This document shows positions 13,344 through 63,451 of a stretch of DNA of 64,000 nucleotides, piece after piece (the first letter of the stretch is position 1; each line of letters opens with the position of its first letter). Source of the stretch: Chiloscyllium plagiosum (Eukaryota); contig NC_057755.1 in assembly GCF_004010195.1 (NCBI RefSeq), forward strand, positions 2,985,286-3,049,285, read 5' to 3'. The notes below the pieces were generated by a model, which saw nothing but the letters and a program-made list of their open reading frames with translations, had not been told where the DNA came from and did not search any database. Both the position numbers and the translations under genes were made by a program.

Positions 13344-14455
13344 TTAATTTGCTGTCAATTGCTATCCTTTCATGGGGAAGGTGCGGTGTTCCCCCTTTTC
13401 CAATCGCTACCTGGTGGTAATGGCAGCTGCTGATCTCCTGGTCATTATCATTGGCATTATAGTGAAACGATTTCGCACTTATTATTACCCATGGTATTTC
13501 CTGAACATCACTCCTGTGTGTAGTGTTACTGGGGTCCTGTTACGTACAGCAGGGACTGCTCTGTCTGGTTCACTGTCACTTTCTCCTTTGCCCGATTTGT
13601 GATCATTTGTTACAAAATATTGCACTGAAAATATTGCGACTGTGGTGCTAGCAACAACCTGCACCCTGTTCTGTTTGAAAAACATCCCCTTTTATTTTCA
13701 ATATGAGCCTCGGGGCATAATCAACAACGTGCCATTCCGCTGTAGAACAAAATCAAGCTACTTTTCTGAGACTTTGGTGGGTGGCATTAGATGGGCTTGA
13801 TATGGTTTTAAGTCCTTTACTACCATTCGCTTTCATTCTGTCACTCAATTCTCTGACAGTCAGACGCATTTTAATGGCCAGTCGAATCCGGAAGAAGCTG
13901 AAGGGTGAGAGCAAAGGAGAGAATCACAGAGACCCAGAGATGGAGAGCAAGAGGAAATCTGTGATTTTGCTGTTGACCATCTCTGGGAGCTTCATCCTCC
14001 TGTGGTCAATTGCTGTGCAGGATTTCGTATATTATGTCATTCAAGGAATCAATCCTGACATTTACTCTGGTTTTCTATATCACTTCAGCAAAGTTGGTCA
14101 CATGCTGCGGAGACTAAGTTGTTGCACAAACGCATTTATTTATGCAACAACATTGTCCAGAGAGTGGTGGGTGTGTGGAATGTTCTGCCCCAGATGGCAG
14201 TGGAGGCCCTGTCTCTGGATTCGTTTAAGAAAGAGTTGGATAGAGCTCTCAAGGATAGTGGAATCAAGGATTATGGAGAGAAGACGGGAACAGGATACTG
14301 ATTGAGGATGATCAGCCATGATCATAATGAATGGTGGTGCAGGCTCGAAGGGCAGAATGGCCTACTCCTGCACCTATTGTCTATTGTTCAGAGCGAAGAT
14401 CAGTAAAGCAGTAAAATACTTGCTTACACGATTTCCTTGTGTTATATATAATTAA
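13344..14455 (+). pseudogene. GPR139-like GPCR pseudogene (gene A)
   Basis: CACAG acceptor, then VNLLSIAILSWGRCG. About four frameshifts are needed to follow the paralog alignment (near 13395, 13552, 13611, 13776). DRF is changed to ARF. A CR1 3' fragment is inserted at 14161-14385 just after TM7, and the native tail RFRAKISKAVKY...* resumes at 14386-14455. Confidence 0.88.
14161..14385 (+). mobile_element. CR1 LINE 3' fragment inserted in pseudogene A
   Basis: QRVVGVWNVLPQMAVEALSLDSFKKELDRAL; ends in a (CTATTGT)n tail; receptor sequence is colinear on both sides. Confidence 0.9.
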
Positions 14456-14524
14456 AACTCCTCAGTGAACACCACAGCAGGGTCCTATTGTTTCCAGAGC
14501 ATGAAACAATGTTTTAAAAGTAGT

Positions 14525-14975
14525 CACTCGTGGGATGTCAGCCTTGCTAGCGGAGTCAGCATCTACTACCGTCCCTAGTTGCCTCTTGAGAAGGTGGTGC
14601 TTAGCTGCCTTCCTCAACCACTGCTGTCCACAATGCGACAGTGAAGGAATGACGCTATATTTTCAACTCAAGATGATGAGGGACTTGGCGGAGACCTTGC
14701 AGGGGGTGGTGTTCCCAGCTATCAGCAGCACTTGTCCTTCCAGATGGAAGCGGTCACAGGCTTGGAAGGTGCTTTCTGTGGATCTTTGGTGAATTTCTGC
14801 AGTGTGTCTTGTAGATGATACATACCGCTGCCACTGTGTGTCGGAGGTGGAGGGAATGGATGTTTGTGAATGTGCTGCTAATTAACTGGCTGCTCTGTCC
14901 TGGATGGTGTCAAGCTACTTGAGTGTTGTTGGAGCTGCACCCCTCCAGGCAAGTGGGGAGTATTCCTTCACATTT
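14525..14975 (-). mobile_element. CR1-clade LINE 3' remnant
   Basis: RNVKEYSPLAWRGAAPTTLK motif; same family as 59620-60600. Confidence 0.65.
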
Positions 14976-15349
14976 CTGACAGACAGTCCTTCTCCTAGTG
15001 CAGGGAGAGAGTTGAGCTGGGAACCTGAGGATTTCCCATCACAGCACACTCCAAATGAATTTTCCGGGAAAATGGAATCTTCTACTGGGTAATTCCTGTC
15101 AGCTTGGAACTTTTTGTGAGCCTCCATCACAGTCAAATCCTTCCGAGTGCTTGGTGAAATTAAATGGAATAGTTAATCAGAAAATGTTTGTCTTTTACAT
15201 ACATGATCTCGCTGCTCAGTAACAGTCAAAAGACACCATACTAATGTCATAAACAGCCAATTATGAGCTGTTTCAATGTGAGAAATTGTGGCAGGTGATC
15301 ATATGATGTTATCAGAACACACCCACCAAACATTTATTAATGCAAAGTT

Positions 15350-15662
15350 CCAAATCACACAACACTGGGTTATAGTCCAATAGGTTTATTTGGAAGCACT
15401 AGCTTTCATAACACTGCTCCTTCATCAGGTAGCTGTGTAACAGAATCATAAGACACAGAATTTATTGCAAAGGTTTACAGTGTAATGTAACTGAAATTAT
15501 ATATTGAAATGGACCTGCATTGTTTGTTAAGTCTCTCATCTTTTAGAATGGGCATGTCGGTTTCAGCACTTTCATATGTATACTCCAGAACTTTCATAAA
15601 GTTACATTCTCAAGTGAACTTTAAGAATAGATGCCATGTTGGCCCAGATAATGACTTGAAGG
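15350..15662 (-). mobile_element. Penelope-terminal repeat (second family)
   Basis: TATAGTCCAATAGGTTTATTTGGAAGCACTAGCTTTC...CCTTCATCAGG; decayed hammerhead on the minus strand; related to 30250-30600. Confidence 0.6.
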
Positions 15663-15760
15663 TTATTTATGCAGCAACATTGTCTAGGTTCAGAGAAAAG
15701 TTCAGTAACAAAGTAAAATATCTAGTATCATTAAGTTCTTATTTATGAATAATTAAAACT
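15663..15760 (+). pseudogene. Orphan 3' fragment (end of TM7 + helix 8) of a fifth GPR139-like paralog
   Basis: IYAATLSRFREKFSNKVKY aligns with gene A's IYATTLS|RFRAKISKAVKY; both are followed by AATTAAAACT. The upstream sequence is a Penelope-type repeat, not receptor sequence. Confidence 0.75.
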
Positions 15761-16089
15761 TACGAATAATAACAAAAGCTGGGCTCCCTATTTTTAACAT
15801 CAAACTTACAAATTCCAATGGGCTGCTACACCATTGCCGCCCTCAAACATGTACAGTATTTCCTGTCATGGAGTGAATATGCAAAACCGTGCCATAAATC
15901 TCTCTCCATTTAAAAAAATACAACACTACCCTCTACTGTCCTCCCCATGCCACTGCATGTGGTACTGTGGAGGATTTATTCCCTCAAGGATTCGGTCAGA
16001 GAGAGAGAAAGAGACGGCAGCAGCTCACTACATAACCTAAACTAACAGCATCATCAACACACAAACACTCAAAGACACACAGAGACACA

Positions 16090-19189: not shown

Positions 19190-21333
19190 TACGTAAGCAC
19201 TTTGGTGACAGTGATCACAGTCCGGTTACATTTACTTTGCGATGGAAAGGGATATACCACATGGAAGAGTTACAGCTGGAGGGAAAAGGCAATTATGATG
19301 TGATTAGGCAAGATTTAACATGCATAGGATGTGGAAGGAAATTGCAGGAGATGGGCACAATTGAAATGTGGTGCTTATTCAAGGAACAGCTACTGCGTGT
19401 TCTTGATAGGTATCTACCTGTCAGGCAGGGAGGAAGTTGTCGAGTGCGGGAGCCGTGATTTCCTAAGGAAGTTGAATCTCTTGTCAAAAGGAAGAAGAAG
19501 ACTTTTGTTAGGATGAGATGTGAAGGCTCAGTTAGGCTGCTTGAGGGTTAAAAGTTAGCCAGGAAAGACCTAAGGAGAGAACCAAGAAGAGCCAGGGCGA
19601 GACATGAGAATTCATTGGCTAGTAGAATCAAAGGAAAACCCCTAAGCATAGAATGACTGGAGTAAGATGACAGCCAATCAAGGGCAGTAGTGGGAAATTG
19701 TGCATGGAGTCCGAGGAGATAGGTAAAGTGCTAAATGATTATCTTTTGCTGGCATTCGCACTGAAAAAGAAAACCATATTGTCAAGCGAATACTGAGATA
19801 CAGGCTTTTAGATTAAACGGTATTGAGGTTCAAAAGGAGGAGGTGTTTGCACTTCTCGAAAGTGTGAATATAGATAAGTCCCCTGGGCTGGATGCAATAT
19901 ATCTTAGGATTCTCTGAGAAGCCAGGGAGGATATTGCAGAGCCTTTGGCTTTAATCATTATGTCATCATTGTCCACAGGAATAGTGCCAGAATACTGGAG
20001 GATAGCAAATGTTGTTCCCTTGAACAAGTAGGGAAGTTGGATCAATCCAGGTAACGATAGACTAATATACCATACTTCGGTCGTGTGTAAAGTGTTGGAA
20101 ATGTTATAAGAGATAGGATTATAATCATCTGGAGAGGAATAAGTTGATCAGGGATCGTCAACACGGTTTTGTGCCTTACAAACCATATTGAGTTCTTTGA
20201 GTACAGACTGGTGGATGGGAGTAAAGCAATTGATTTGGATTTCAGTAAGTCGCTCGATAAGGTCCCCCATGGTAGGCTATTGCACAAAATATGGAGGCAT
20301 GGGATTGAGTGTGATTTAGTGATTTGGATCAGAAATTGGCTAGCTGAAAGAAGACAGAGGGTAGTGGTTGATGGGAAATATTCATCCAAGAGTTCAGTTA
20401 CTCGTGGGGTACAGCAAGGATCTGTTTTGAGTCCACTGTTGTTTGTCATTTCTATAAATGACCTGGATGAGGGCATAGAAGGATGGGTTAGTAAATTTAC
20501 AGAAGAGAAGAAGTTAGGTGGTGTTGTGGAATGTGCTGAAGGATGTTGCAGAATACAGAGGAACATAGATAAGCTGCAGAACTGGGCTGAGAGGTGGCAA
20601 ATGGAGTTTAATGTGGAAAGGTGGGAAGTGATTCAGTTTGGAAGGAGCGACAGGAATAAATAGTTATGGGATAATTGTAAAATTCTTGGGAATGCAGATG
20701 AGCAGAGCGATCTCAGTGTTCATATACACAGACCACTGAAAGTTGCCACCAGGTTGATAGGGTTGTTACGAAGGCATACGGTGTGTTAGCTTTTATTATT
20801 AGAGGGATTGAGTTTCGGAGCCATGAGGTCATGTTGCAAGAATTGGAAGAATTGGAAGCTTTGGAAAGGGTTCAGAGGCGATTTACTAGGATGTTGCCTA
20901 TTGTGGAGGGAGGACTTATGAGGAAAGGCTGAGATTCTTGATTCTGTTTTCGTTAGGGAGAAGAAGGTTGAGAGGCGACTTCATTGAGACATACAAAAGA
21001 TAATCAGAGAGTTAGATAGGATGCACAGTTAGAGCCTTTTTCCTCGGATGGTGATGGCTAGTACGAGGGAACATAGCTTTAAATTGAAGGGTGATAGATA
21101 TGAGGAGAGATGTCAGAGGTGGTTTTTTTTTACTCAGAGAGTAGTAGGGGCTTGGAACGCCCTGCCTGCAACTGTAGCAGATTTGGCAACTTTAAAGGCA
21201 CTTAAGTGATCATTGGATAAACATATGGATGAAAATGGAATAGTGTAGGATAGAAAAGCTTCAGATTGGTTCCACAGGTCGGCGCAACATCAAGGGTCGA
21301 AGGGCCTGTACTGCGCTGGAATGTTCTATGTTC
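19190..21333 (+). mobile_element. CR1 LINE, 5'-truncated ORF2 (end of endonuclease + RT) with 3' end; many stops
   Basis: SDHSPV, KSPGLD, DFSKSLDKVPHGRL, GVQQGSVLSPLLF and WAERWQMEFN motifs; ATGTTCT-type tail. Confidence 0.92.
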
Positions 21334-24333: not shown

Positions 24334-25350
24334 ATTGAATTGAATTGAATTTCTTGTGACATGTACCGAGACACAGTGAAAAGCTTTGTCTTGTGAGCAA
24401 TAAAGGCAGATCACATAGTTAAATAACATAGATAGTAAATAATAGGTAAGCAGCGGCAAAAACAAAAACATGGGTACTGGTGAATATTAAGAATTTTGGA
24501 GTCCATTCAGTACTCTAACAACAGTAGGGTAGGAACTATTGCAAAACCGGCTGGTGCGTGTGTTCAGGCTTCTGTACTTTCTCCCTGATGGTCGAGGTTG
24601 TAGAAAAATCATTGCGAGGGTGAGATGGATCGTTGAGAATGCCTTTCCTCGACAGCAGGCCTGGTCGATGCATTCTATAGATGGGAGATTGTCTTTTGTG
24701 ATTGAACGGGCCGAGTTCTCTACTCTCTGTAACTGTCTCCGACCTTGAATGGTACAGTTGCTATACCAGGTAGTGATACATCCAGACAAAATTCTCTCTA
24801 TAAAAGTTGGCATGCTAAATTTCCTCAGCTGCCTGATGAAGAAGAGAAATTGTTGGGCCTTTGTAACCAGTTTGTCCACATGAAGAGTCCAAGAAAGCTT
24901 GTTGTGGATGATCACTCCTAGGAGCTTGACACTCTCCACATATTCCACTTCTGTGCTGTTAATGTGTAGGGGGGCATGAGTAACATCCTGCCGAAAGTCA
25001 ATAATGTGTTCCTTGGTTTTGCTGGCATTGTGAGCTAGGTTGTTCTTAGTGCATCACTTTTCCAGGTCTTCCACCTCCCGTTTTTTGTCTGTTTCGTTGC
25101 CATGAGATTCGACCAACTATGGTGGTGTCATCTGCGAACTTGTACGTGGCATTAGTCTGGTATTTGATGACGCAGCAATGGCTATACAGTGAGTACAGTA
25201 GGAGGCTGAGTACGCGCTCCTGGGGGGCTCCAGTGTTGAGTGTTAGTGACGATGAAATATTATCCCCAATCTTCACTGATTGTGGCCTGTAGGTCAGGAA
25301 ACTGAGGATCCGGTTGCAGCAAGAGGGGCTTAGTCCGAGATCATTAAGTT
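24334..25350 (-). mobile_element. Rex1/Babar LINE (RT C-terminus, 3' end with (TTCAA)n tail)
   Basis: [39 protein letters not shown] and GCITTWY motifs; microsatellite tail at 24334-24351. Confidence 0.88.
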
Positions 25351-25449
25351 TGTAAGTTTGCATGCTGCTAGGGCTGGACAATTTGAGCGATAGGGAGAAA
25401 TTGAATTGGCTGGTTTTCTCTGGAGCATTGGAATTTGAGGGTGATCTCT

Positions 25450-27139
25450 AAGAGGTTCATAAAATCATGAGGGGTGTGAACAGGATAAATAGACAAAGTC
25501 TTTTCCCAAGTGTTGGGGAGTCCAGAACTAGAAGGCATAGATTTGGGGTGAGAGGGGAAAGATATAAAACGGACCTAAGGGCAACAATTGCTATATTTAA
25601 AAGGCATTTGGATGGGTATCTGAATAGGAATAGTTTAGAGGGATATAGGCCAAGTGCTGGCAAGTGGAACTCGATTAGGTTGGGACATCTGGTCAGTATG
25701 GACAAGTAGGACTGAATGGTCTGTTTCCGTGTTGTACAGCTCTATGACTCGATGTGCATGAACAGAAAGTTCAAGACATGAGAATAGCGGCAGAGGTAGA
25801 ACATGAATATGCATTGGTGTGGAGCGCAAGGTTTAACTTCCAGTAGGTATTTCATTCCATGAGGTACAGAAATTGGGAGAAGGGGAGATCCTACACTACA
25901 AATCAAAAAGTATAGCACAATGGGTGATAATGGAAGCACAAGGTGGCGAAAATGAGGTTTAAGACCTCATATGTTTCCATGTGGTAAGTTGGGAAAGGTA
26001 AAGTCACAATCCTGGTCGTTGAAGAAAGGCACTATCGGATAAGATGTGGTAAGAGAGACTGAGCCAGTGGCATTAGTTCACGTAATAAAGGAAATCCAAG
26101 AAAAGGCGAGGAGCTGCGGAGAGTGCACAGCCTCAGCAGGGGCTGGGTTTAGAGTTAGTGCCTGATCTCGAGAAAAACTTCACATCGGTTGGTAAAGTTT
26201 ACACAGGAAGAGTAGGGGAAGAGGCCTGGAAGGGAAAGAAACTACAATTTTGAGAAATACGTGATCTTATCAGTCTCTAATTGTAACAGTTGAAGAGGTT
26301 CATAAAATCATGAGGGTTGTGAACAGGATAAATAGACAAAGTCTTTTCCCAAGGGTTGGGGAGTCCAGAACTAGAAGGCATAGATTTGGGGTGAGAGGGG
26401 AAAGATATAAAACGGACCTAAGGGCTACAATTGCTACATTTAAAAGGCATTTGGATGGGTATCTGAATAGGAATGGTTTAGAGGGATATAGGCCAAGTGC
26501 TGGCAAGTGAAACTCGATTAGGTTGGGACATCTGGTCAGTATGGACAAGTAGGACTGAATGGTCTGTTTCCGTGTTGTACAGCTCTATGACTCGATGTGC
26601 ATGAACAGAAAGTTCAAGACATGAGAATAGCGGCAGAGGTAGAACATGAATATGCATTGGTGCGGAGCGCAAGGTTTAACTTCCAGCAGGTATTTCATTC
26701 CATGAGGTACAGAAATTGGGAGAAGGGGAGATCCTACACTACAAATCAAAAAGTATAGCACAATGGGTGATAATGGGAAGCACAAGGTGGCGAAAATGAG
26801 GCTTAAGACCTCATATGTTTCCATGTGGTAAATTGGGAAAGGTAAAGTCACAATCCTGGTCTTGGAAGAAAGGCACTATCGGATAAGATGTGGGAAGAGA
26901 GACTGAGCCAGTGGCATTAGTTCACGTAATAAAGGAAATCCAAGAAAAGGCGAGGAGCTGCGGGAGAGTGCACAGCCTCAGCAGGGGCTGGGTTTAGAGT
27001 TAGTGCCTGATCTCGAGAAAAACTTCACATCGGTTGGTAAAGTTTACACAGAAAGAGTAGGGGAAGAGGCCTGGAAGGGAAAGAAACTACAATTTTGAGA
27101 AATACGTGATCTTATCAGTCTCTAATTGTAACAGTTGAA
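25450..27139 (+). repeat. Tandem duplication, about 843-bp unit (CR1 3' end + Gypsy gag/protease piece)
   Basis: 25450-26293 is near-identical to 26293-27139. Confidence 0.92.
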
Positions 27140-28552
27140 CGCATTTGAACTCTTTCTGACATGTTACCCAAGAGAGTGGTAATTTGTGGAACAGAGAATC
27201 AGAAATTTAGTGTTCCCTTGTGTAAGATCAGATTGGAGAGACAAATCAAGTCTGGGAAAGTAACAGAGGGAGTGATTGACAGATTCTCACTTCCGTGAAT
27301 ACACTTTATTCTTTGGAACGATTTAGCAGGATCCAAGGTGGGAATGACACCACTTGTTGTGGATAAGCCAAAGGAAGACAAGGGTACTGAGGAGTTAAAA
27401 AGAAAAGTACCCTAGAATTTTTCCACACAGTGTAATCGCAATATTTTACTGACATATGTCCCAGAAAAAAGCATAAACTAAAGTGAAAGACGAAGGAGTT
27501 GAAGTCCAGTTAGCTGAAAATTGTTTGACGTGATGGTGCAGGAAAAACCTAAACAGGCAGAGCGTTAGACAGAAGTGTTTAGTCCTGAAATACTAATTTT
27601 TGAATCAAAGTGTATTCCTGAGGGTTATTATCTTAAAGGTAGAATGCTAAGAACAAAATGGAGACAGCGGCCGTTTGGTGCAGAGGAGAAATGGGCGGAA
27701 GTGCACCAGATTGTGTTCCCGGGAAGGAACTGGTACTGGAGCACATGAATTACCAATAGAAGGTCACCTAAGTGTGAGGAATACACAGGCTAAGGTACAA
27801 AAGCAATTCCATTGGCCTGGACGATACAAGGATGTGGTTAAATTTCGCCTTGCATTTCGCACGTGTCAAATGTAGGTAAATCACAGGCAGTAATAAGACC
27901 AGCACGTTTGTTGCCAATTCCTGCTTTTGACGAACTTTTCACGTGGATGATCATTGATTGTGTAGGTCCTCTTCCGGAAACTAAAAATGAGAACCAATAT
28001 TTGCGAACGGTAATGTATCTGCCAGATTTCTGGAGGCAATTCCTAACAGAATATTAAGACAAAAAGGGTGGTGGAGAAGGTGATCGCTTTCTTTACTCGA
28101 TATGGACTATCCAGAGAGATTCAGTCAGACCAAGGGTCTAATTCTACTGCTAGGTTGTTTAAGGAAGCCACGGATAGCTTAGNNNNNNNNNNNNNNNNNN
28201 NNNNNNNNNNNNNNNNNNNNNNNNNNNNNNNNNNNNNNNNNNNNNNNNNNNNNNNNNNNNNNNNNNNNNNNNNNNNNNNNNNNNNNNNNNNNNNNNNNNN
28301 NNNNNNNNNNNNNNNNNNNNNNNNNNNNNNNNNNNNNNNNNNNNNNNNNNNNNNNNNNNNNNNNNNNNNNNNNNNNNNNNNNNNNNNNNNNNNNNNNNNN
28401 NNNNNNNNNNNNNNNNNNNNNNNNNNNNNNNNNNNNNNNNNNNNNNNNNNNNNNNNNNNNNNNNNNNNNNNNNNNNNNNNNNNNNNNNNNNNNNNNNNNN
28501 NNNNNNNNNNNNNNNNNNNNNNNNNNNNNNNNNNNNNNNNNNNNNNNNNNNN

Positions 28553-30249: not shown

Positions 30250-30600
30250 GATGTGGTGGTGTCGGTGTTGAACTGGGGTGGACAACATTAGAAGTCACAT
30301 GACATCAGTTGAAAGTCCAACAGGTTTATTTGAAATCACAAGGTTTCAGAGAGCTGACCCTTCATCAGGTGAAGAAACGAAAACCATACAGGCCCTGAAT
30401 TTAGCGGCAGAGACATCAAAAGATCAGACAAATGGTTTGAGTGGAGTATCAAATAATAAGTTTCTGCAGGTAACAAAACTATCAGACAGTGTGAGCAAAG
30501 TGCCAGCAGCTGAATAGTAAATGAAGGGGATGCTTTGTAATCCAACTAATTGAGGCAGAGAGATAATTACAAAAAAAGGTGGTTCTATAGATAAACCTCA
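30250..30600 (-). mobile_element. Penelope-terminal repeat (second family)
   Basis: Related to 15350-15662; decayed CTGATGA...GAAA on the minus strand near 30335-30370. Confidence 0.55.
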
Positions 30601-31528
30601 TGTCTGGAATAAATAAACAGGCTTCATTTCACAGATAGAAGTCCAATGATGGATCTGTTGTACGAGCTATTAATTTTATAAATGATCTTGAAATTTCAAA
30701 CAGATTCACCTCTTTCCTGACAATAGAATGAGGGACATCACGCAACTGTTCCACTTTATCATGGACGTTTCATCTCTAAAAGGTGAGAGTTAGCTAATTG
30801 ATACAGATTATGTTACAGATGGTTAAATCCATGATAGTGTAAGTTACTGCACACAGATTCTATACGTTCATTTTTGTGTGCCTGTATCTGTGTCTATGTG
30901 TATGTGCATATATCTGCTTGTGTTTATATGCTTGTGTATTTCTGTCTCTATGTTTGTATGTGCCTCTTTGTGTGTTGCTTTTTCGGTTTCCGTGCCTGTC
31001 TGACTATCTCCGACCATTTATGTATGTGTGTTTGTGTGTCCCAATGTTTATGTGTCTCCGTGTCTATATTTCTGTGCAATGGACGCTCTGTTGTTTTGGG
31101 AGTTATATCCATTGAAATGGTGGTAAACACCGCCCATCTCTATCTCTGCCTGTCCTTCTTGTGTTTAACGTGATACAATGCTGTTGGTTATGTTGATGTA
31201 TGTTTCTATGTGTGTGTCTGTTTGTGTGTGTATGCCCACCTCTGCGGGCAATGTGATAAAATTTGTGCTGTAAAGAAGCTAGTGTTTCTTATTTAGAGAG
31301 CAATGCAGCACAGGAACACGTCCTTCTGCCCACCAACACCATGGACACGAAGCTTTCCTTACCAAAAAACATTTGCTTCCATGAGGTCCATATTCTCTAA
31401 TCGCTGCTTATTCATGTATCTGACAACATGCCTCTCAAATGTTGCGAAAGTATTTGCTTCCATCACCTCCTCTGACAGCTCATTCTAGGTACTCACCATC
31501 CACTGTGCTAAAAACCTGCCTCTGATAT

Positions 31529-31731
31529 CCCCGTGTCTGCGTGGGTTTCCTCCGGGTGCTCCGGTTTCCTTCCACAGTCCAAAGATGTGCAGGTCAGGTG
31601 AATTGGCCATGCTAAATGTGTTAGGTGAAAGGGATAAATGTAGGGGAATGGGTGGGTTGCGCTTCGGCGGGTTGGTGTGGACTTGTTGGTCCGAAGGGCT
31701 TGCTTCTGCACTGTAAGTAATCTAATCTAAT
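31529..31731 (+). mobile_element. 5'-truncated V-SINE inserted in a CR1 remnant
   Basis: V-domain plus (TAATC) tail; short ATATC-like target duplication. Confidence 0.85.
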
Positions 31732-33597: not shown

Positions 33598-33798
33598 TGG
33601 TGTCTGCGTGGGTTTCCTCCGGGTGCTCCGATTTCCTCCCACAATCCAAAGATGTGCAGGTCAGGTGAATTGGCCATGCTAAATGTGTTAGGTAAAAGGG
33701 ATAAATGTAGGGGAATGGGTGGGTTGCGCTTCGGCGGGTTGGTGTAGACTTGTTGGGCCGAAGGGCTTGTTTCCGCACTGTAAGTAATCTAATCTAAT
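33598..33798 (+). mobile_element. V-SINE (duplicate of 31529-31731)
   Basis: Same sequence within the duplicated block. Confidence 0.85.
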
Positions 33799-39054: not shown

Positions 39055-39864
39055 CTGTATAAAGAAAAAGAGAAGAGAAAATACCTGTAAAACAGTGCTC
39101 AGATATCCCCTGTATCAGGTCCCAATTGGTTTTGAGATCTGCCAATCACTTCGAGTCATCCTCTTGATCCTTCCTCCTCATCTCCCTGCTNNNNNNNNNN
39201 NNNNNNNNNNNNNNNNNNNNNNNNNNNNNNNNNNNNNNNNNNNNNNNNNNNNNNNNNNNNNNNNNNNNNNNNNNNNNNNNNNNNNNNNNNNNNNNNNNNN
39301 NNNNNNNNNNNNNNNNNNNNNNNNNNNNNNNNNNNNNNNNNNNNNNNNNNNNNNNNNNNNNNNNNNNNNNNNNNNNNNNNNNNNNNNNNNNNNNNNNNNN
39401 NNNNNNNNNNNNNNNNNNNNNNNNNNNNNNNNNNNNNNNNNNNNNNNNNNNNNNNNNNNNNNNNNNNNNNNNNNNNNNNNNNNNNNNNNNNNNNNNNNNN
39501 NNNNNNNNNNNNNNAAATAAACTATCCTTGCTTTAAAAACATTTACTGGTAAGAACATAAGAAATAGACAAGACAATGACACTCCAAGACCTCAAATTTG
39601 GACCATTTTTTCTTTTTCCTATTTTCATCCCTATTCCACTTCGACTTTCGATATTGCAGAGCATTGCATCCCATGTCTTAGCAAATGAGATCCCATTTCG
39701 AGGAATGAAAATTGTCATTAACACTCAGTGATTGTTCGGGATGTGGAGAATGCAAGTTTACTCTGGGCCTACGATTCCCACTTTGGAAAGTTCTACTGTA
39801 GGTTCTGAGAGTATTCTTCCCATCATATTTATATCTCAAAGTAGTTAGCTCAGTTTCAACACAC

Positions 39865-45900: not shown

Positions 45901-48306
45901 GATTGTTGGTATCAGGTGTTTTAAGTTCATCAGTAACTGTTTTAGTGTCTTGGTAGGGTTGTGGGCTACCATATTGTCATGGTGTCTAATTCGTCTGGTA
46001 GTCATCTCTGAGATATGTTTGATGTGTCTTAGTGGGGCTAGAGTTTTTGGGCGTGTTGTGTCTACTTGTTGTTTGGGTTTGTTATTTAAGAATCTACAAG
46101 CTATGTTTATCGGGTACCCATTCTTTTTGAATAAGCTGTGTGTATTATTTTTTTTCTGTTGCTCGTAGTTCCTGGTTGTTGCAGAGTATTGTGGCCTATT
46201 TCAATAATATCCTTGTGCAGCTCCATTTGTGGGTATTGAGGTGATTGCTTCTGTCATTAAGTATCTCGTCTGTGACTATTGCTTTGCTGTAGACGCTGAT
46301 CTGCAGTTCTCCATTAATTATTCTTTCCACTGCACCAGCTACGAAGGGAGTTCGTTGCTCTTCTCCTCATGTTTTGTGAAATTTATGCCAGTAAGGATGT
46401 TGTTGATGATGTTGTCGGTTTCCACTCATTTGTTACATTTCGTGATGACAAAGTTGTCTTTCACGGAGCAGACTGAAAGTTTAGATAGGATCATGGTGAA
46501 GGCTGTTGGATTGAGCCTCTGCCTTACTGCTTCTGCTAAGAAGCCCGATATCGGTGATCCCATGAGTATTCCGTTGATTTGTTTGAATGTCTTGACATTG
46601 AGGGTGAAGTGGTTAGTGAGGCACTGGGCTACTAACTTGAAGGTGAAACAGGTGATGAAATTGGTGCTGTTCGACCACTTGTGCCTTTGGTTCATCTGTT
46701 GGGGCGGCCACTGTTTCTTTGGCTAGACTGATGTTAGTTGATGTGAACAGGGCTGTGAACAGGAGACCATTATTCCGTTTTAATATCTCTTGGCGTCTTT
46801 GATGATGTTCAGGAATTCTTGGGTGAAGTGGATGGAGTGGCATGAGTTTTCTGCTAGACACTTCATCTTTCCGTGGAATTCCTTTGCTAATCTGTCTTTC
46901 ATTGTGCCAAGGAGTGAGACGAGGGTCTGACGGGGTTGCCTGTTTTGTGTCCTCCAGGCAATTCGTTGAAGTGGGATGTGTTGGATCCATCAGGTTTGAT
47001 TTTTTTTTGAGATCTGTCTTGTTAATTTGGACTGATTTATAATAATTCTGCAAGACAGCTGTGATACGTTTTTCTGGCTCTGGAGTCGGGTCTAAGTGTT
47101 GGTATCTACGAGCAGTGAGTTCACCTTTTCAATGTATCCTGTTTTGTTTAGGATGATGGCCATGCACCATTTGTATGCTGGTAGGATTACTATGTTTCTG
47201 TCTTTTCTGAGTCTTTCTCAGCTTTCCTTTCCTGTTTGTTGACAGTGCTCCCGTCCTTCTTTCTGCTTACTGTTGGTGTGTCTGATAGTCTGCTGGGTTT
47301 CTTCTGTGACTCAGTTGTCTTTCAGAGTTGATTCTCATGCTGCAAAGAAGTCATTTTTGTTCACATCTCTGTAGTTGTAGGTCATCCCTCTTACGTGGGT
47401 GGCTTTTTTCTGTGTCTGTTAGTGGTCGGCCCAATAGATTTTTTAAATCCAAGCGTCTATAGGAAAACAAGACGCACAGACCAGATATTTAACTGTAGAC
47501 GCAATTATTCCAACCCCAACAAACGGAGCTGCATCAGGACATTAATGAAACGAGCCACAACGCACTGCAGCATCCAGGAACTGCGAGCAGCAGAAGAAAA
47601 ACACCAATACAACAATTTCAAAAAGAACAGATTCCCAAAAGACACAGTCTGCTGATTCTTCAACAACAAACCCAAACAAGTAGACACAACACACTCAAAG
47701 ACTCTAGCCACATTACTACACATCAAAGACATCTTGGAGATGACTACGAGACGAATCTGACCTCTTGGCATCATGGTAGCCCACATACCTACCAACACAC
47801 TGGAACAGCTACTGATGAACCTAAAGGACCCGATACCAATAACCAGCAAAACGAACGTCATGCACAAAATACCATGCACGGACTGTACCAAATAATACAT
47901 CAGATAGACAGGCAGAAAACTAGCCACCGTGATACACGAACACCAACTACCTACCAAAAGACATGACCCACTATCATTGAATCCTTACATACGCATGAAG
48001 AAAGACACCACTTCGACGAGGACAACACATCCACCCTGGAACAGACTAAACAGAGACACGCACAGGAATTCCCAGAGGCCTGGAATTCAAACTGGAACTT
48101 CATCAATAAATAAATCGATTTGGACCCATTTACCAATCTCTGTGAAAAAGAACAGAAAGTGATGTCATCCACCTTAAGAGAGCAAAACACATAAATAGAT
48201 AGGACAGAAAACCAGCGTTTCAGTGGAGGTTCGCTGATGATGTTACCTCACATGGTGATGAAAATCTACAAACAAATCTAGCAGCTCAGCGATCACACTT
48301 ACAACC
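42978..48306. mobile_element. Penelope-like element in inverted configuration (minus-strand RT+GIY-YIG copy joined to a plus-strand 3' copy), with an internal duplication across the gap
   Basis: Minus strand: RT motifs FKQINGILMGSPISGFLAEA and DV.ALFTS-like. Plus strand 47450-48306: VYRKTRRTDQIFN...HKIPCTDC..YI. The outer ends are inverted repeats, each with a hammerhead-like motif. Confidence 0.88.
43512..47596 (+). repeat. About 1.8-kb direct duplication flanking the N-gap at 45303-45804
   Basis: 43512-45302 is near-identical to 45805-47596. Confidence 0.92.
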
Positions 48307-49081
48307 TAAACAGGAACAACAAAGGTTTGACATTCAGAGGAATATGCATTCGACTCATTGGAACTACAAATAATTAAAACACAGCTCCACTTGCACTCAC
48401 CTGATAAAACACTTCTGGGACAGGAACAATTGGGGACTAAAGTAAAAGCTCCCTCGGTTCACTCAAAGAGTCCAAAATATCTCCAGCATTGCTACACAAG
48501 AGGCAAACGCCTGTCCCCTGCTAGACTGACTTCCTCAAAATCTCTCTGTACCCTAATACTGTTTTTCAGGTCATGCTTTGCTCTCTCTGGCTGGAGAACA
48601 CTTGGCTGCTGGGTCAATTTCTGTTTGGCTGCCTGTGCTGTCAGTTCCTCACTTAAATCCTGGCTTTGACGTGAGGTATCTATCCTCTGAAACACGGCTC
48701 ACTTTGAATTCTGAAGACACCAGACTGATGGGTTTGAATTCAAAGGACGTAATGGTCACTTCTTATTGATGGCCATGCAGGGATCCAAATGTTGTCTAAT
48801 TCCTCTTAAAAACAAATTCTACAACGCCAAAAAGAATGTTATGAATGAATTTGTCCAGATCTCACAATACCAAACCTTACAAAACATTACGAACACAAGC
48901 CAGTACTAATGCAAAACAGTCCGAAATTTATTTGGAATCAAGTTACAATAGCTTTCACGACACAACAACGCTATCTCCATTTCTATTCAGTCCCTTAAAC
49001 TTACAATACTTCCCTGAGTCTCTTGTCGATTTTAGTATCTGCTCTTTTTCTCGCTATCCATGTTTAACTGCAAAACTGTTT

Positions 49082-53122: not shown

Positions 53123-54019
53123 TTAATTCTCTTGGAATTGTGGTCATGCCCTGAGGAAACTGCGGTCCCTCAAACTGTGCCAGTCTCTACCTGCTGGCCA
53201 TGGGAACAGCAGATCTATTTGCTAGTATCACTGAAGTTATTCTGTGACAAATTGAATATTATTATTTCCCCTATATTTCCTGGACGCCATCCCTGTGTCC
53301 AGTGTCCACCATGTTCTGCTTCATGCTGCGGTGAACTGTTCTGTCCGGTTCACACTCACCTTCTGATTTAATCGATTTATTACAATCTGCTTCCTGATCA
53401 TGAAAACGAAATATTGTACCAAGAAAAATGCAGATGTCATTTTCTCAATATGGTAAACTTTCCTCTGTTTTGAAAAATCCTGTTTTAATTTTGATATGAA
53501 CCATTGCCAATGTAGCATGGTTCTGTTATCAAAAACCAAAATGCATTACTGAGCCTGGATCGGTGGGATTTAATTTGTTTGATAGGGTTTTAACTCCATT
53601 GTTTCCACTTGCTCCAATTTTGTTGATCAGTGCTCTGACAGTAAGACACATTTTCGTGACTAGTCGTCCATCAGAGACTGCAGGGTCAGAACAAAGAGAA
53701 TCCCACTGACTCAGAGATGAAGAGCAGAAGAAAGTCTGTGATTTTGCTGTTCACCATATTCAGCACCTTCATAATTCTCTGGTCAGTGCATGTTATGGAA
53801 TTCTTTTATTATAACATTCGAGAAAAACACCTGAGACGTTGCAACAATACAAAACGTATATTTGTGAAGGTTGGACTTTCACTGGCGAATTTAAGTTGCT
53901 GCACAAACAAATTTGTTTGTATGGGAACCCAATCCCAGTTCAGACAGCAAGTCCAGGAGATGATGAAGTATCCCATCACGTTAATTATCTAGTTAATGAA
54001 TGAACAAAACAGCTATTAA
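53123..54019 (+). pseudogene. GPR139-like GPCR pseudogene (gene C)
   Basis: TGCAG acceptor at 53118-53122, then VNSLGIVVMP*GNCG...YLLAMGTADL. Contains in-frame TGA stops (consistent with CGA->TGA decay) and several frameshifts. Motifs still recognisable: (F)NRFITIC, KYCTKK, EMKSRRKSVILLFTI, LSCCTNKFV, QFRQQV...KYP. Confidence 0.88.
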
Positions 54020-56085: not shown

Positions 56086-56626
56086 CATTGTAGACTCCTG
56101 AAGTTAAGCTTCTGAATTAGTTCCAAGTTTGTTTTGCATTGTATCGAGAAAACATAAGTTAGTGTAAGTTTCAGTTGTTGTTGTGATCTATACTGGCTTC
56201 AGGTTCTCTCTTTTGGAGTGCTCAGACACAGCTAGAATTTCACAAATGAAATTTCTAAAACTGAATTAATCAGAACAGCAATGTGATACAGTTTGCAGTA
56301 AAACAGCTCTCAAGGAGCTCTACAACATGAGCAATTGAAAGTCTGAATAGCCTCAGCAAAATGAAGGTCATCGCTGGAAAGAGTATCAACAGATAGTTAC
56401 ATATTGGTGGGACTGATAATGAGTGCAATTACGTTGTTGCATGAAGACAGGTTGGAATTGACATTGAGACGTGACGGCATCAATTTAATCCAGTCTTTGG
56501 GGTATTCAGTTGCAGACATAAATCTCAATGAGATCACATCATTAAAATAAAGCTGTAGTCGTAATAAGTTTGTTCAGAAACAAATTAAAGGTGTCTTCAA
56601 AGTTTCCCAGTGGAGATGTCACATCA

Positions 56627-56633
56627 TATAAAA
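56627..56633 (+). promoter_or_regulatory. Candidate TATA box of gene D
   Basis: TATAAAA about 107 bp upstream of the exon-1 ATG; motif match only. Confidence 0.35.
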
Positions 56634-56733: not shown

Positions 56734-56800
56734 ATGCATCTTCCAAGGCAAACGGTGGAAAAACTGTACGACACTGTCCTTGCCAGTGTTGGTATTCCTG
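56734..56800 (+). CDS. GPR139-like 7TM receptor (gene D), coding exon 1: MHLPRQTVEKLYDTVLASVGIP
   Basis: ATG at 56734 in AAAATG context, 22 codons + 1 nt, then a canonical donor CCTG|GTAAG at 56801. The phase-1 G joins in frame with TT at 62565 to give ...VGIP-V-TLMLIV, completing TM1. This matches the GPR139-family TM1 junction 'G-[LVI]-P|x-N'. Not in the ORF track because it is too short. Confidence 0.8.
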
Positions 56801-59619
56801 GTAAGCCTTTTAAAACGCTATGTTATATACATATCTGCATTAAATCATACTTATTTCAACCTTAGGACTATTAATAATATTATTTTCATTTAGCAAAACA
56901 AATTCGGATGCCGGGCGACAGTGCCCTCACTTACTGAGTTTAAAGAGAACAGTTTGTCAATTATGAGGCTGCTCAATATTATGCAGCATTGTCTGTCAAT
57001 TCTGCGCAGAATGGGTTTGCAGTGATGATGAATGACTGATCACCGGCTCTGGCTTGTCCCACAAAATGTTCAGAATTATCACTTTCTGTCTCTGTGATAG
57101 TTCAAAGGCTGCGATGGGTCAGATGAGTTTTGTAACAATCCACCTCTCAATGACATCACACTTTCCCCATGTCTTGATGTTAAGATTTTTTTTTGGTGGA
57201 TCTGACTCGGGCAGCTTGCTCCAAATGGGAGCCCAGAAACAACGTGGACAAGGAGTGGATTGAGCAGGTCATTATGGAGTGGTAAGTGAAGGTCAACAGA
57301 AACGTGTTGAGCTCGGAGTTGGAAGTATGATGTATGTTGTTGAATTATTTGATTGTCACAAAGTCGTGTGAGCTGTGCCAATTGTAAAAAAAAAAGATGC
57401 ACAGTACTGTGCTGCAGATTCGAATCGGACAAATGCTCAAATCTGGAGTGTTGTGGTAGCAGCTCTCCCACAGACAACCAAACAACTTTGTCCAACAGGA
57501 GATTTCCCATCTTTACTTTGGTTGCTATCATTCTTTGATGTTCCCCAAACAATAATGGTCTATGTGAAGGTGCTCCCATGTGCATTCATTTGGGATTGTT
57601 GCTTAGTCTCGGGACATCATTTTGGATACATTATTATAATTAATATTATCATTATTATTGATATTATTATTATGGTTATTTTGTTGGCACTGACGATTCA
57701 TTCTGGGACTCGGTGAGTTGGAAACTATGTCAGGGTCATCAGTTGATTCTTAGTCCATCAGCAGCGCTTTGGGAAAAGGATATGAATCAACTGTGGCCCC
57801 AAACTTTCATGATGCTCTTTGCCTCATGGTGTGGAGCATCATTGCACAGATAGTTACACGAGATGTCTGTTCAATTTGTGATTTAGACCACAGAGACAGA
57901 TTTATATTGATATATAAATTCCAAAAGTTATAAACCCAAACTCTTTTGTGGACATTGAAGAGTGGAAGGTTTGTTGAGGGTGGGTATAAGATAGTATTAA
58001 AGCAACTTATTTATTGCCAACTAGCCCTTAGAGGTTTACTACTTTTTGTAGTAACAATAACACCCAGTTGAACTTTCACTCAGTACATTGTAAACATTAG
58101 GGCATTAACACAGTTGACTGTGGCTATATCTGGCTCAGTGTTTTTCATCAGGAGAGAAACAAGGTGGATAAACTCTTTGATGCAATAGTGTTTCATTTGT
58201 TTCAGTCCAAAATGATTTACTTGATGGAAAATGTCATTGCTGGAATGTTCGATGGAAAGATATCAAAGTAATTTCATTTGGTATCCAATAAGACTTTGTA
58301 AGATTCAGATAAGATGTGTTACTGCCGTACCTACAGAGATTAATACAAAACAGAAGCCTCAATATTCTCAGCACTAGCATTCTGAGATGGCGTCTCTTGG
58401 AGAATTTTATTTACTCTTCTATCGACGTTCAGTTCTTACTTCTCCAGATGGTCCTACTCCCTGATTGTAGGGTTCTGCCTGAATGCTAACCCAGTACTGT
58501 TCCTAATGAATGCATTTAACCCCTGATTTACTGAGCACAGGAATTGGACAGAACGAGTTGCTGATTGTATGATATCAATGTACGCATTTGACATTTCCAA
58601 ACTAACTTTATGTTGAAATTCATCAACTCAGAAAAATGAAAGATCTTAATCTGTAGGTCAAAGGCATTCTGCATTATGCAGTTATTGACTGGAATGTCTG
58701 TACTGTTGATTCAGATCTCCAGAAATCACTATGAGTGAAGGTATTCCTGATTGCGGAATTGTCAACGAATATCAGGTTGGATCCTCTGATTACTGTGGCC
58801 TCATGCTTCTGGGAGACACACCATTACAGCGTTCTACTGAGTGCGGGTGACTGCTCGAATAGAACTGCTAACCCACTATTCCTACCTGTCTACTGGTATC
58901 TGTAAAGCATTACAGTAAGTGTAGAGCACTAGCAGGAGAATACCTGTAAGTTCAATTGGAAGGTTTACTGGGAGTTCCTTTCACTGTAGAACTATCCTGC
59001 ATGTAGGCCAATCGTGTGAAAGCCAATTCCAGTGATAATGTGATTCAGTGAGCATCTTTCAATTAGAATCTGACTAAATATAGCCAAAGGGGAACAACTA
59101 ACCCAGTGTTCATGTGTTATTGGGAACATCTCTCCAAGTTAAATTATGCTAAGTGGGAATTACCAACTGGAGAGGAACAGTTTACCCCAGTGGCCTTGTG
59201 CATGGAGCAGTATTGATGTCTCAAGAATTGACCTGCTTGTGGGGAACTGAATATAAATGGAATATCTGTTCACAGTGGTAACTAAGACCATGACAGTATG
59301 GAGCATGTGGTGTTTCTTTTATATTACATTCCTTGTTTCTATTCTGTCCACTGACTGAGCTGTTAATGTAGTTTGTAAATGTACACTGGATTGCAAATGG
59401 GAAAACCTTTGAAGTTGGTTGTAAATGTTTGGTCCTCAGTTTACAAAGTGAAATGTCCTATTAGAGATAAGTAGATGTGATATATTTAATAAAGTGAGAA
59501 TGTCAGAGCAACAATATTGTTTCAATAAAATGCCCTAGAGATGTGTTATGTTTTCAAAATGGAGCCCTAAAAAGAACTGGTGTCAATAAGATTACAGCTC
59601 TGTTCGTTTTCATCCTGAC

Positions 59620-60600
59620 CACAGGTGAGCATGTTTATGGCTGCTGGAGGTCAGTTGTCTCATATCTCTGCAGCAATTTTCAGGGTCATAAACTCAGCCC
59701 CAATTCTGCAGATGCTTCATGAATGCCCTTTCATGTATCATAATTTTCAAATTAGAGATGATTTCTTATGATTGCACAATATTCAGCACCATGTATGGCT
59801 CATGAGGCAATAAAGAGATCTGTGTCCATGTACAACATCTAGCTTGGACTGGTAATTGACAAGTATCATTCGCCTCCCACAAGCAGCAGGCAATGAACAT
59901 CTCAAAAGGTGAGTATCTACCAATTTTCAACTGGCTTACTTTGCCATTACTATCACTGAATGCAAGACTATCAACAGCTTGGGTTAACCCTTGTCAAGAG
60001 AATGACCTTGTCCAAGCATGCAAGTACTGTGGCCAAAGGCATACATCAAACACTCTCATTACGGAATACTCTGCCCACCTCTGCAATCCATGTGCATCAT
60101 GTAGCTAGCATAGATCATGGGTGGATTGGAATTCTCTCCATGTATCTAGCTGAGAGCAGCTCAAATGCAACACTGAGTACAAAGACACACAAAGTTCCAC
60201 ATTGTGCAGGACAAACAGCAGCTTGATTGGACGGTGCACATCACCACAATGAGTACTCACTCCCTTCCCCAATAACATGCGAGACGAGCAAAAAAATACC
60301 TTCCACAGGATGGAAAATGATTACCGTCAAAGTCTGTCTCAGCAGCTCCTTGCAAACCCATGGCCTCAAGTCCCTGGATGCATAAGGGCAGCAGAAACAT
60401 CGAAAAGACATCACATGCAAGTTCCTTTTCAAGCCAGATATCATTCTAACTGTCAAATGCATTTCCGTTCCATCACTCTTGCTGGGAGAAAATTCTGCAA
60501 CTCTCCCCCAAAAACAGTGTGTGTTTCCCTGCACCACAGAGGAGATAGATGTTCACAAAGGCAACACCACAACAAAGAGTACATATGAAAGGATATTGGA
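59620..60600 (+). mobile_element. Old CR1-clade LINE RT/3' remnant in the intron of gene D
   Basis: Decayed QG..L.P..F..F.N.L...(A)DDC region at 59670-59790; same family as 14525-14975. Confidence 0.6.
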
Positions 60601-61451
60601 CGCTACCCTAACCACTAAATCGCCCATTCCATGTGCACATTTAAAAATAATCACCATTCCCTAATCTGCAAGAGGTTACCTCTGAATGCAGACAGTGGAT
60701 TGTGTCCATGAGAATGCCCCGTAAATCAGACAGCAGAAGAAATGTTTAAGGTGAAAGGCTGGATGCTTGGTGCTGAGGTTCTGCGAATTCTGGGCATCAG
60801 CTACCCCAGTGGATAATCCATCTCACTCTTTATTTTGTTGAGTCCAATGAATTTCCCAACTCCTGCTGGTCTCAAAGCCAGGAGACAGGTCCTTTTGCCT
60901 TATTTGTCTGTGTTGGGTACTGGTTGAGGCATTTGTGTTCCCTCCTCCAGGTGACTACATGGGGAAGAAACCTTATCTTTGAAAATCGATCAAACCTGGA
61001 GTGAGTCAGTTCAAATTTGTGACAATGGACTCAATGCAGAGATATCCAATCCCAGGGCATGGTCTAAAATGGTCATGCATTCATTTGTACTGGGAAGTTG
61101 GCTGTGCTTGGGAAACTGCATCTTCATTTATTCATTGAAGAGTTGTGGCTATCACTGGCTTAGCAGACACTTCGCACCCTTCCCTAATTGCCCCACCAGA
61201 TTGATCTGAGTCTGGAGTCATGTGTAAGGTAAGGATAGCAGATTACCATCCCGAAAGGATTTTTTTTCTGACAATGAGACTCTTAGGTCCAGACTTTTAT
61301 TGAAATGAAATTCCACCATCTGCCATGGTGAATGCCGACTCCAGCTTCCCAGAAAAATACCTAAGTCTTTGAATTAACAGTATAGTGAAAAGGCCATTAG
61401 GCCATTGTCTCCCCTAAGCTTTAGCATTGGCCTCAATCATAGCGATTTAAG

Positions 61452-61690
61452 TGTGGCACTGTAACAGAGTGATTAGCATTCCTGCCTCACAGCACCAGAG
61501 ACCCAGTTACATTTTCACTCTTAGGTGACTGTCCGTGCAGAGTTTGAACATTTTCTCTTACCTGCCATGCTGAAATAAAAACACATCCATGAGGTTAGGT
61601 AGTGTTTGTGGGATGCACTTTGAGTGATCATTCCAGACTCAATGGCCCACATGGACTGTTTCTGCTCTGTACAATACTGGTGATCTCCAT
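61452..61690 (+). mobile_element. Old full-length V-SINE (tRNA head)
   Basis: GTGGCAC...GTGATTAGCATTCCTGCCTCACAGCACCAGAGACCC head and a CR1-like tail. Confidence 0.6.
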
Positions 61691-62564
61691 AGTGATTGCT
61701 GGTTAAACCATGGGGTTTTCTAGCTCCAGTGTGTGCTCCAAATCTGGGAGGGGGATCTCTATTCACAATGTGAAAGCCGAGGAGAGAAACTTGGTGCACG
61801 AGCCTGCGCAGGACATTTTACTTAATCTCAGATAAAATGTCGGATTCTTAAACAGAAAGTTGCAATGGCTAATGCTGCATGGATTCAGGTTTTATTTGTT
61901 TGGGAGCTACTGTATACAATCATGGACAGCTGCCAAATATTCGCATTCTTATGATTGTGATGGGCATCCACTCATCGTACAGATTGTAGGGATGTTTAAA
62001 CCTGTACACGATGGAGCCATTCAATGCCCGATCATTCGTTCATCCATATTGTGCAGGGCATCCATTCTGAGACACCGTGGACTGATTCAATTCCTCTGCT
62101 ATAGTTCATACAGCATGATTATATAATTCTGGAAGCAATCTGAGCTATTGAGACACCGAAACCAAATACAGAAATGTTGTAATCAGTGTCCGTGCTAGGT
62201 CTCTCCCATTCTTTGTTTTACTAATATCAGTTATCATTGTGTGGATGTTATGGTCTTATGCGAAACTCCAGCCAGTCTGAGTAACTTATAAAGCAGCTGA
62301 ATTCATCCAACGCCGACCTTAAACCAACATTGAGTAAGTTACTGTGTTTCTTTGAGAACTCATGTTCTTTCCATCATCTTTTTTTTTAAAAAAACTGCAA
62401 GTGATTCATTTAGAGAATGTTTGTTGGTGTGGTTCAGATGCTTTCAACTTCATATGACATGGAACAAAAAATATCTTTGTGTCATTACTCACGGTCTGGG
62501 CTCAGGAAGGAATAATGTTTGATCAGTAGCATCAAGTTTCTTTTTTCCTTTCTTTTTCTTCCAG

Positions 62565-63451
62565 TTACTCTAATGCTAATTGTATTCCTGGCTCGAGGCA
62601 GGTGTGGTCTTTCAAAATGCAGCACTCACTATCTGGTGGCCATGGCAGTGTCTGATCTACTGTTCATTGTTATTCATTTCGTACTCTACAAATTTCTACG
62701 TTATTATTATGCACCGTGTTTCCTGGACATTACTCCTGTTTGTAGTGTTATCTATGTCCTGGTCTGCTTGACCATTGATTGCTCTGTCTGGTTCACTGTT
62801 GCATTTTCTTTTGATCGATTTGTTGCCATTTGTTTTCATCAGATGAAAACTAAGTATTGCACAGAGAAAACTTCGATGAGAGTTCTAACAACAATCTGTG
62901 TTTTCTTTGCTTTAAAAAACATTCCCAACTACTTTCGATTTAAACCTGGAAAGATCAGCAATAATGTTCCATGGTACTGTTATATCAGGTCCAGTTATTA
63001 TCATGATCCTCGGTGGAAAAGTTTTCAATATCTTGAACAATTTTTAACACCATTTCTCCCATTCACGTTTATTCTCTTTATTAACACTCTGACCGTCGGA
63101 CACATCTTCGAGGCTATTAAGATGCGTAAAGGACTGAGAGGTCAGAGAAAAATAGACAATGATCCCGAGGTAGAGAGCAGACAGAACTCTGTGGTTTTAC
63201 TCTTTGCCATATGTGCCAGCTTCATACTTCTCTGGTTGGTTTTTGTCTTAAGTTTTTTTAATGTTGCTTATTCCTTGAAGTCTGCTGCTGCTTCTCTCTT
63301 TCAACAAGTCGGATATATGCTACGGGACTTAAATTGCTGCACAAATGCATTCATTTACGTGGTGACACAGAGAAATTTCAGAGACCAGTTGAAGGATGCC
63401 GTGAAATATCCAGTTATGAAAATAATTCAGTTGATGGACTCGAAACGTTAA
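62565..63451 (+). CDS. GPR139-like rhodopsin-family GPCR (gene D), main coding exon; spliced product 317 aa
   Basis: Open frame (ORF track 62519-63451) preceded by a polypyrimidine tract and CCAG acceptor at 62561-62564. Motifs: YLVAMAVSDLL (TM2), C...DCSVWFTVAFSFDRFVAIC (TM3, DRF), YCTEK, PFLPF (TM5), DPEVESRQNSV, FILLW (TM6), CCTNAFIY (TM7), FRDQL (helix 8). TAA at 63449-63451. Family assignment is by recognition, not by a database search. Confidence 0.9.

Follow-up and report, generated by a model that had tools for sequence, protein, structure and literature searches.

Receptor units in the window

A 64-kb window of the Chiloscyllium plagiosum genome, that is, the whole stretch of DNA analysed here, contains a cluster of genes for class A G-protein-coupled receptors (GPCRs). 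Six-frame translation and self-search located four receptor main exons (units A, C, D and E) and one short fragment, which are arranged along positions 13344–63451 in the orientations +, +, −, + and + (A, the fragment, C, D and E). The tblastn E-values between the units range from 1e-94 to 1e-21, and a chance likeness among them is therefore excluded. The five paralogous units in mixed orientation within about 50 kb, which an earlier note on this DNA had listed, are thus borne out by their coordinates and E-values. That note counted two intact main exons and two pseudogenes; these are C and E, and A and D, respectively, although only E is demonstrably a complete gene. What the note calls gene D is probably E. 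The main exons of A, C, D and E are each preceded by a pyrimidine tract and CAG, and in 4 of 4 cases they begin at one identical aligned column within transmembrane helix 1 (TM1). The TM1 acceptor claimed for the four units that retain their 5′ end was thus found as described, and its phase 1 is directly shown for E. Since the DNA of these four units is only 57–65% identical, the array is old, and no recent burst is indicated. The DNA around the units is rich in repeats and includes six N gaps, which amount to 2,041 bases in all.

The first exon of gene E was located with a search matrix built from 47 N-termini of well-formed database models, which carry about 22 residues ahead of the TM1 splice point. 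Its donor was the best of the 11,760 GT/GC positions scanned, with 16.2 bits (the next position scored 4.4, and the mean was −31). When the two exons are joined, an unbroken frame of 317 aa is obtained (56734–63451). Exon 1 and the N-terminus of a Chiloscyllium model share 50% identity, and the models closest to gene E are a zebra-shark one (68–69%) and a partial Chiloscyllium one (71%). The zebra-shark counterpart is intact, and it is the sister of gene E in the tree (support 100/100). The two open genes of the window match the Pfam domain 7tm_1 with E-values of 8.6e-18 (E) and 2.4e-19 (C), and the structure predicted for the exon-2 part of E (pLDDT 88.5) has seven TM helices and helix 8. D2.50, a D/ERY-like motif at 3.49–3.51, P5.50 and N7.49/Y7.53 complete the class A characteristics. 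The N-terminus of E is very short, with about 12 residues before TM1. Position 1.50, which is Asn in 97% of the family, is Thr in gene E and Ser in its zebra-shark sister. The first exons of A, C and D were not found by a position-specific matrix, an exon-1 profile, blastn with the exon-1 region of E or local alignment of the E promoter; the weak candidates that turned up at 42603 and 60260 (−) were discarded.

A large family of cartilaginous fishes

Of the 2,684 candidates that the search with gene E brought up, 1,673 protein clusters had E ≤ 0.001. The best 120 of these 1,673 clusters, on which the family residue counts and the pocket statistics given below rest, all belong to sharks and rays; 75 of them are from the horn shark (Heterodontus), and most are automatically named GPR139. 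Divergent members were found in skates, a stingray, an electric ray and the chimaera Callorhinchus. Read depth was also informative as to family size. At 80% likeness, the TM3 motif of C gave summed contig depths of 18,770 and 30,117 in two public runs labelled as one species, versus depths of about 7–14 and 11–33 on the unique flank of C. This suggests a family of the order of 10^3 copies, where the summed depth is no true copy number, pseudogenes are counted and the run type is not on record. A large rather than a small copy number is thus supported by both the 1,673 clusters and the roughly thousandfold depth, and the birth-and-death reading that the earlier note gave to the cluster is sustained in the sense of a large, lineage-expanded family. 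Many RefSeq models of this family have wrong or spurious N-termini, often derived from repeats, because the 67-bp first exon was missed; automated counts of intact genes are consequently unreliable.

In a 38-row tree (LG+G4 model, with the long-branch rows P0179, P0181 and P0201 left out and no true GPR139 or GPR142 rows), all 18 chondrichthyan members form one clade (support 100/98), which is sister to five amphibian/sturgeon rows (96/90). A second vertebrate lineage is placed outside these sisters and invertebrate peptide-type receptors lie beyond it, the vertebrate lineages being separated from the invertebrate hits with a support of 100/100. In an 87-row quick tree, for which the careful search was unfinished and which also had no true GPR139 or GPR142, the support of the clade was only 81, and the three vertebrate lineages were unresolved. 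The chimaera member nests inside the family, so that the family is chondrichthyan: its expansion within a lineage, as proposed earlier, stands, but its restriction to elasmobranchs does not.

The amphibian/sturgeon sister gene (P0232 and relatives) is represented by 20 amphibian clusters from 20 genera and by one sturgeon, which make up 21 of its 25 hits; neither an amniote nor a teleost is among these 25. It is apparently single-copy, and it has Ser1.50 and Asn2.50. The second lineage (P0245 and relatives) comprises sharks, ray-finned fishes, the coelacanth, amphibians, turtles and squamates in the best 120 of 145 hits, and no bird or mammal is among the named hits listed there. Arg6.51 occurs in 119 of 119 of its sequences. 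Two of its gene models are fused to TMEM183A, which suggests that this gene adjoins TMEM183A.

Relationship to GPR139 and other receptors

Gene E alone matches GPR139 with 27 bits (E-value 3.2e-5), below galanin receptor 1. The profiles are more informative. For a profile of 36 cartilaginous-fish members, human GPR139 is the sole solved-structure hit at E ≤ 1e-17, and for a mixed family profile it is the top solved structure with 101 bits, versus 84 for the next one. It is also at the top for both sister genes, with 70 and 53 bits versus 44 and 40 for the next ones. In a fold search, neurotensin and galanin receptors came first and GPR139 22nd, with TM-scores of 0.62–0.73 that are uninformative on kinship. 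Judged by the profile searches, the family is a distant cousin within the wider GPR139/142 group and not an orthologue of GPR139. The label "GPR139-like" of the earlier note is therefore appropriate for the wider group, but for GPR139 itself it is a loose database name.

GPR139 and GPR142 (human GPR139 structures 7vug and 9m42) share the short N-terminus and Trp6.48 with the family. The structural-alignment identity between GPR139 and gene E is about 20%, and GPR139 has one copy versus hundreds to thousands. The family keeps Cys3.25 (119 of the best 120 members) and a Cys in extracellular loop 2 (ECL2), whereas the printed GPR139 alignment lacks both. A TM1 intron is presumably present in GPR139. 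According to passages in Rinne et al. 2019, "GPR210" is the name of three additional genes in the GPR139/142 group, which occur in gar, teleosts and coelacanth (PMC6504862); these sets probably overlap the two single-copy-like sister lineages. Neither the elephant shark nor Chondrichthyes is named in the main text of that paper, and no expansion is reported in the passages drawn on here (PMC6504862). The wider group includes GPR139 and the invertebrate MIP/sex-peptide, proctolin and FMRFamide receptors, as stated in the text of PMC12208981.

In the Pfam scan of the 36 members (E ≤ 0.01), 7tm_1 was matched by 36 of 36 and srx weakly by 2 of 36, while the olfactory receptor (OR), V1R, class C and srw domains were matched by none. 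The OR, TAAR, V1R/ORA and V2R/OlfC families resemble this one in their tandem clusters, pseudogenes and variable pockets, and OR and TAAR also in near-single-exon coding, but the ancestry of OR, TAAR, V1R and V2R is separate, as no OR, V1R or class C match was found in the 36 members. Acidic residues at 5.42 are common to the family and fish clade III TAARs. The srw receptors, a nematode/protostome expansion from peptide-type rhodopsin receptors according to the text of PMC3963977, are a parallel rather than relatives in membership (0/36 matches, and the separation of the vertebrate lineages in the tree); srw-bearing clusters do occur among the look-alikes of the family in the ESM Atlas.

In RefSeq and UniRef, the same family appears as "probable G-protein coupled receptor 139" models of sharks, rays and chimaera, and other models are called "sex peptide receptor-like", "capa receptor-like" or "vasopressin V2 receptor-like". 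These names are automatic and are accompanied by no family description, ligand or tissue. No description of an expansion of a GPR139-like family in cartilaginous fishes was found among the papers listed in the literature search, subscription journals and the catshark supplement lying outside that search, and "GPR" is not in the main text of the catshark, zebra-shark and shark-nose papers (PMC11979771, PMC10116579, PMC10620051).

Variation of the binding pocket

For the comparison of the pocket with the remaining parts of the receptor, the helices were numbered by motif counting, not from a solved structure, and 28 canonical predicted pocket positions were used. In the family, the mean pairwise identity is 0.49 in the pocket, 0.64 in the other part of the outer half (p = 0.015) and 0.85 in the inner half (p = 4e-9), where neither the sequences nor the columns underlying the p values are independent. 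Among 75 horn-shark paralogues, the corresponding values for pocket, outer half and inner half are 0.50, 0.69 and 0.88. Among 14 sawshark paralogues, they are 0.62, 0.72 and 0.92, with a difference between pocket and outer half that is not significant (p = 0.11). The single-copy-like lineages are reversed: the second lineage has 0.76, 0.62 and 0.69, and the amphibian/sturgeon gene has 0.95, 0.81 and 0.77, so that the pocket is their most conserved part. Thus, as far as can be judged from the sequences, the paralogues appear to keep the signalling face and to vary the binding face, as sensor repertoires do.

GPR139 binds Trp and Phe via F3x33, H5x43, W6x48, N7x38 and, by modelling, R6x51, according to passages in PMC5430874. 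Of these five residues, E and C have only W6.48. Among the best 120 members, 9 carry Phe3.33, 4 carry His at the His187 position and all 120 have Trp6.48, while Arg or Lys at 6.51 and Asn7.39 occur once each. In the amphibian/sturgeon gene, four of the five are retained (Phe 21/21, Trp 20/21, Lys 21/21 and Asn 21/21). Together with its near-invariant pocket, this makes the gene a promising candidate for a so far unstudied receptor of aromatic amino acids or peptides. The case for aromatic amino acids as ligands of the shark family, which the earlier note had drawn from GPR139 and GPR142, is weak, since both open genes, like most members, lack four of the five pocket residues.

Acidic residues are present at 2.57, 3.37, 5.39 and 5.42 in 103, 114, 83 and 98 of the best 120, respectively, and three or more of them occur together in 103. 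In fish clade III TAARs, Asp5.42 serves as the counter-ion for amines, as described in the text of PMC4695389. Because the family has acquired acidic residues in its pocket and no longer has the basic one at 6.51, many of the ligands might be cationic compounds (amines, basic amino acids or peptides) and not Trp or Phe, although this is a weaker reading than that of a detector of external chemicals.

Promoter of gene E and public reads

The putative promoter of gene E is listed in Table 1. Its extended homeodomain site lies at 56539–56547 on the minus strand, 195 bp before the ATG, and its TATA-like box lies 107 bp before the ATG. The extended homeodomain motif is a feature of mouse OR enhancers, according to the text of PMC7804114. 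The 9-mer that matches the 3′ end of this motif occurs once in the 64 kb, with a chance expectation of about 0.012 per 500 bp. The OR-like site before E is suggestive only. Another homeodomain-like site lies at 35806 and is followed by no exon.

The reads of runs X1 and X2 cross the acceptor of E unspliced and behave as DNA, and the few E reads of X7 are uninformative. On unit C, 34 reads of X7 (single-cell RNA) and 20 contigs of X9 matched at 80% likeness, the tissue of both being unlabelled. None of them reaches 95%, which indicates that they come from other copies of the family. Some of these matches run on into family-like sequence and some do not, as judged by eye with the strand unlabelled.

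Remaining units and other sequence in the window

The coordinates of the receptor units and their parts are given in Table 1. The acceptor AG of unit A ends at 13343, and the insertion that splits this unit looks like the 3′ end of a CR1-type long interspersed element (LINE). The fifth unit, about 120 bp in length, is closest to the 3′ end of A (92% over 25 bp and 70% over 71 bp) and is probably, from this likeness, the remnant of a partial duplicate of it. That it might be the displaced tail of A was rejected, since the own tail of A is situated at 14387. Just upstream of unit A, a 57-bp piece like the family motif of intracellular loop 3 and TM6 was found at 13075–13131 (−) (nhmmer E-value 4.8e-5), which is possibly a sixth remnant. 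Unit C is covered with few differences by contigs of two public runs. As three N gaps, at 39191, 45303 and 51228, lie upstream of it, C may be a complete gene whose first exon is in a gap, or it may be an orphan main exon.

Table 1. Receptor units of the C. plagiosum window and their parts
Feature	Position	Strand	Description
Unit A, main exon (pseudogene)	13344–14161	+	TM1–TM7; four frame-shifting indels (−1, −1, −14, +1)
Insertion in unit A	14162–14386	+	about 225 bp, at the end of TM7; frame stops at 14161 and resumes at 14387
Unit A, helix-8 tail and stop codon	14387–14455	+	displaced by the insertion; from self-search and alignment
Fifth unit	15663–15783	+	TM7/helix-8 fragment; nhmmer E-value 4.3e-5, profile domain E-value 0.0027
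Unit C, main exon	38156–39054	−	TM1 to stop, open; 7tm_1 E-value 2.4e-19; 65% identical to a horn-shark model
Unit D, main exon (pseudogene)	53123–54010	+	four indels shift the frame; the codon alignment contains seven stop codons
Gene E, putative promoter	56417–56633	+	two TAATGA homeodomain-type sites, weak O/E-like site, TATA-like box
Gene E, exon 1	56734–56800	+	22 codons and one base; phase-1 GT donor at 56801
Gene E, intron	56801–62564	+	5,764 bp, GT..AG; predicted splicing, no read spans the junction
Gene E, exon 2	62565–63451	+	open main exon of a class A GPCR

The window is rich in remnants of LINEs, short interspersed elements (SINEs) and long terminal repeat (LTR) elements. Retroelement remnants were found at 183–692, 20148–20660, 24490–25447, 28047–28181 and 43317–48311; they include a reverse-transcriptase fragment (Pfam RVT_1, E-value 3e-12) and other LINE pieces, as well as pieces that we presume to resemble a Penelope-type endonuclease and an LTR integrase (no Pfam hit). 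Near-identical tandem duplicates (95.7–98.1%) are present at 25450–27139, 30370–34387, 43512–47596 and 2321–3561. Two of them flank N gaps and none carries a receptor; they are probably uncollapsed haplotypes or assembly artefacts.

Discussion

The proposal that is consistent with these results is that a family of two-exon class A GPCRs of cartilaginous fishes, which probably descends from a single ancestral GPR139/142-group gene, would have evolved by tandem birth and death. Each copy would respond to its own external chemicals and signal through a G-protein interface common to all, and each sensory cell would use few copies. The variable pocket and the conserved inner face incline us slightly towards regarding the family as a repertoire of chemosensory receptors, which may serve smell. 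The fuller form of this proposal is more doubtful than the general one and may well fail in one part or another. It holds that cartilaginous fishes have an olfactory family of their own with about a thousand loci, which, separately from OR, TAAR, V1R and V2R, would go back to a single GPR139/142-group gene, be controlled by an OR-like homeodomain promoter, possess an acidic amine- or peptide-binding pocket, and serve as the main repertoire of the shark nose instead of V2R.

Several points weigh against the chemosensory proposal. Position 3.33 is basic in 54 of the best 120 members and could neutralise the acidic residues, and gene E itself has two of the four acidic residues and Thr, not Asn, at 1.50. 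The pocket was assigned by motif counting and not from a solved structure, and its variability also fits immune or barrier receptors or a relaxed constraint. As for the promoter, the 9-mer was observed in one promoter as one of seven patterns tried, so that its chance value becomes about 0.08 after correction, and a strict O/E site is absent from it. In four runs (two DNA-like, one read to about 2% and one without aligned reads), no read joins the two exons of E. In the catshark, olfactory neurons yielded no signal for any of the 8 OR genes examined, and ciliated neurons seem to be lacking, according to the text of PMC10116579; OR-type motifs therefore need not mean the nose. In passages of the same paper, V2R/OlfC are described as dominant in the catshark, with 34 v2r/olfC genes and 4–9 genes in each other olfactory family (PMC10116579). 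According to the text of PMC11979771, a brain-plus-olfactory library had no GPCR among its 50 most specific genes, which neither supports nor excludes a family of individually rare members.

The family may alternatively serve immune or barrier surveillance, with variants in leukocytes or epithelia that detect microbial or damage-derived peptides and metabolites, comparably to formyl-peptide or Mas-related receptors. A variable pocket, a conserved inner face and gene turnover would be equally expected there. The peptide-receptor-type cysteines of TM3 and ECL2 are kept, and the closest folds are those of peptide and chemokine receptors, though without discrimination. However, the N-terminus of about 12 residues is unlike that of chemokine receptors, as is generally known, and the OR-enhancer-like homeodomain site before the start of E also speaks, weakly, against this alternative, which we regard as unlikely but worth keeping in mind. 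Internal sensing in the gut, rectal gland, gonad or brain by metabolite or neuropeptide receptors with no external role is less probable still. The presence of GPR139 and invertebrate peptide receptors in the wider group agrees with it (PMC12208981), as does the expression of catshark v2r in the testis and rectal gland as well, described in the text of PMC11979771. Receptors for endogenous ligands, however, usually keep a conserved pocket, as both single-copy-like sister lineages do, and for hundreds of distinct pockets no obvious set of endogenous ligands exists.

The copies could also have been amplified in a largely non-adaptive manner, being driven by repeats, mostly silent or decaying, and relaxed in the constraint on their pockets. 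Three of the five units are broken, C has no detectable first exon, and the LINE, SINE and LTR remnants are abundant. On the other hand, the inner face is 0.85–0.92 identical across paralogues and the zebra-shark counterpart of E is intact, which indicates long purifying selection and makes such an amplification improbable. Finally, the family hardly consists of multiplied true co-orthologues of GPR139 that still sense L-Trp and L-Phe: the database names and the best solved-structure match of the family profiles would agree with this, but the low score of E against GPR139, the rarity of the Trp/Phe-pocket residues other than Trp6.48 in the best 120 members and the existence of a closer single-copy-like sister gene in amphibians leave it very little credence.

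Growth of GPCR families by tandem birth and death is known, while growth in this lineage and at this scale, in animals thought to be poor in receptors, appears to be undescribed. The few dozen known olfactory receptor genes of sharks sit oddly with the reputation of these animals for smell; hundreds to about a thousand GPCR loci carried under an automatic GPR139 label would turn this into a question that can be tested by re-counting existing RNA-seq data. The window contributes to it one complete gene with its putative promoter, and a contrast to the GPR139-like conserved pocket of the amphibian sister gene. Even if the function were immune or barrier surveillance, the family would be one of the largest GPCR families in cartilaginous fishes. 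It would provide a clean case of a repertoire that arose from a single-copy ancestor with a conserved pocket, which amphibians still carry.

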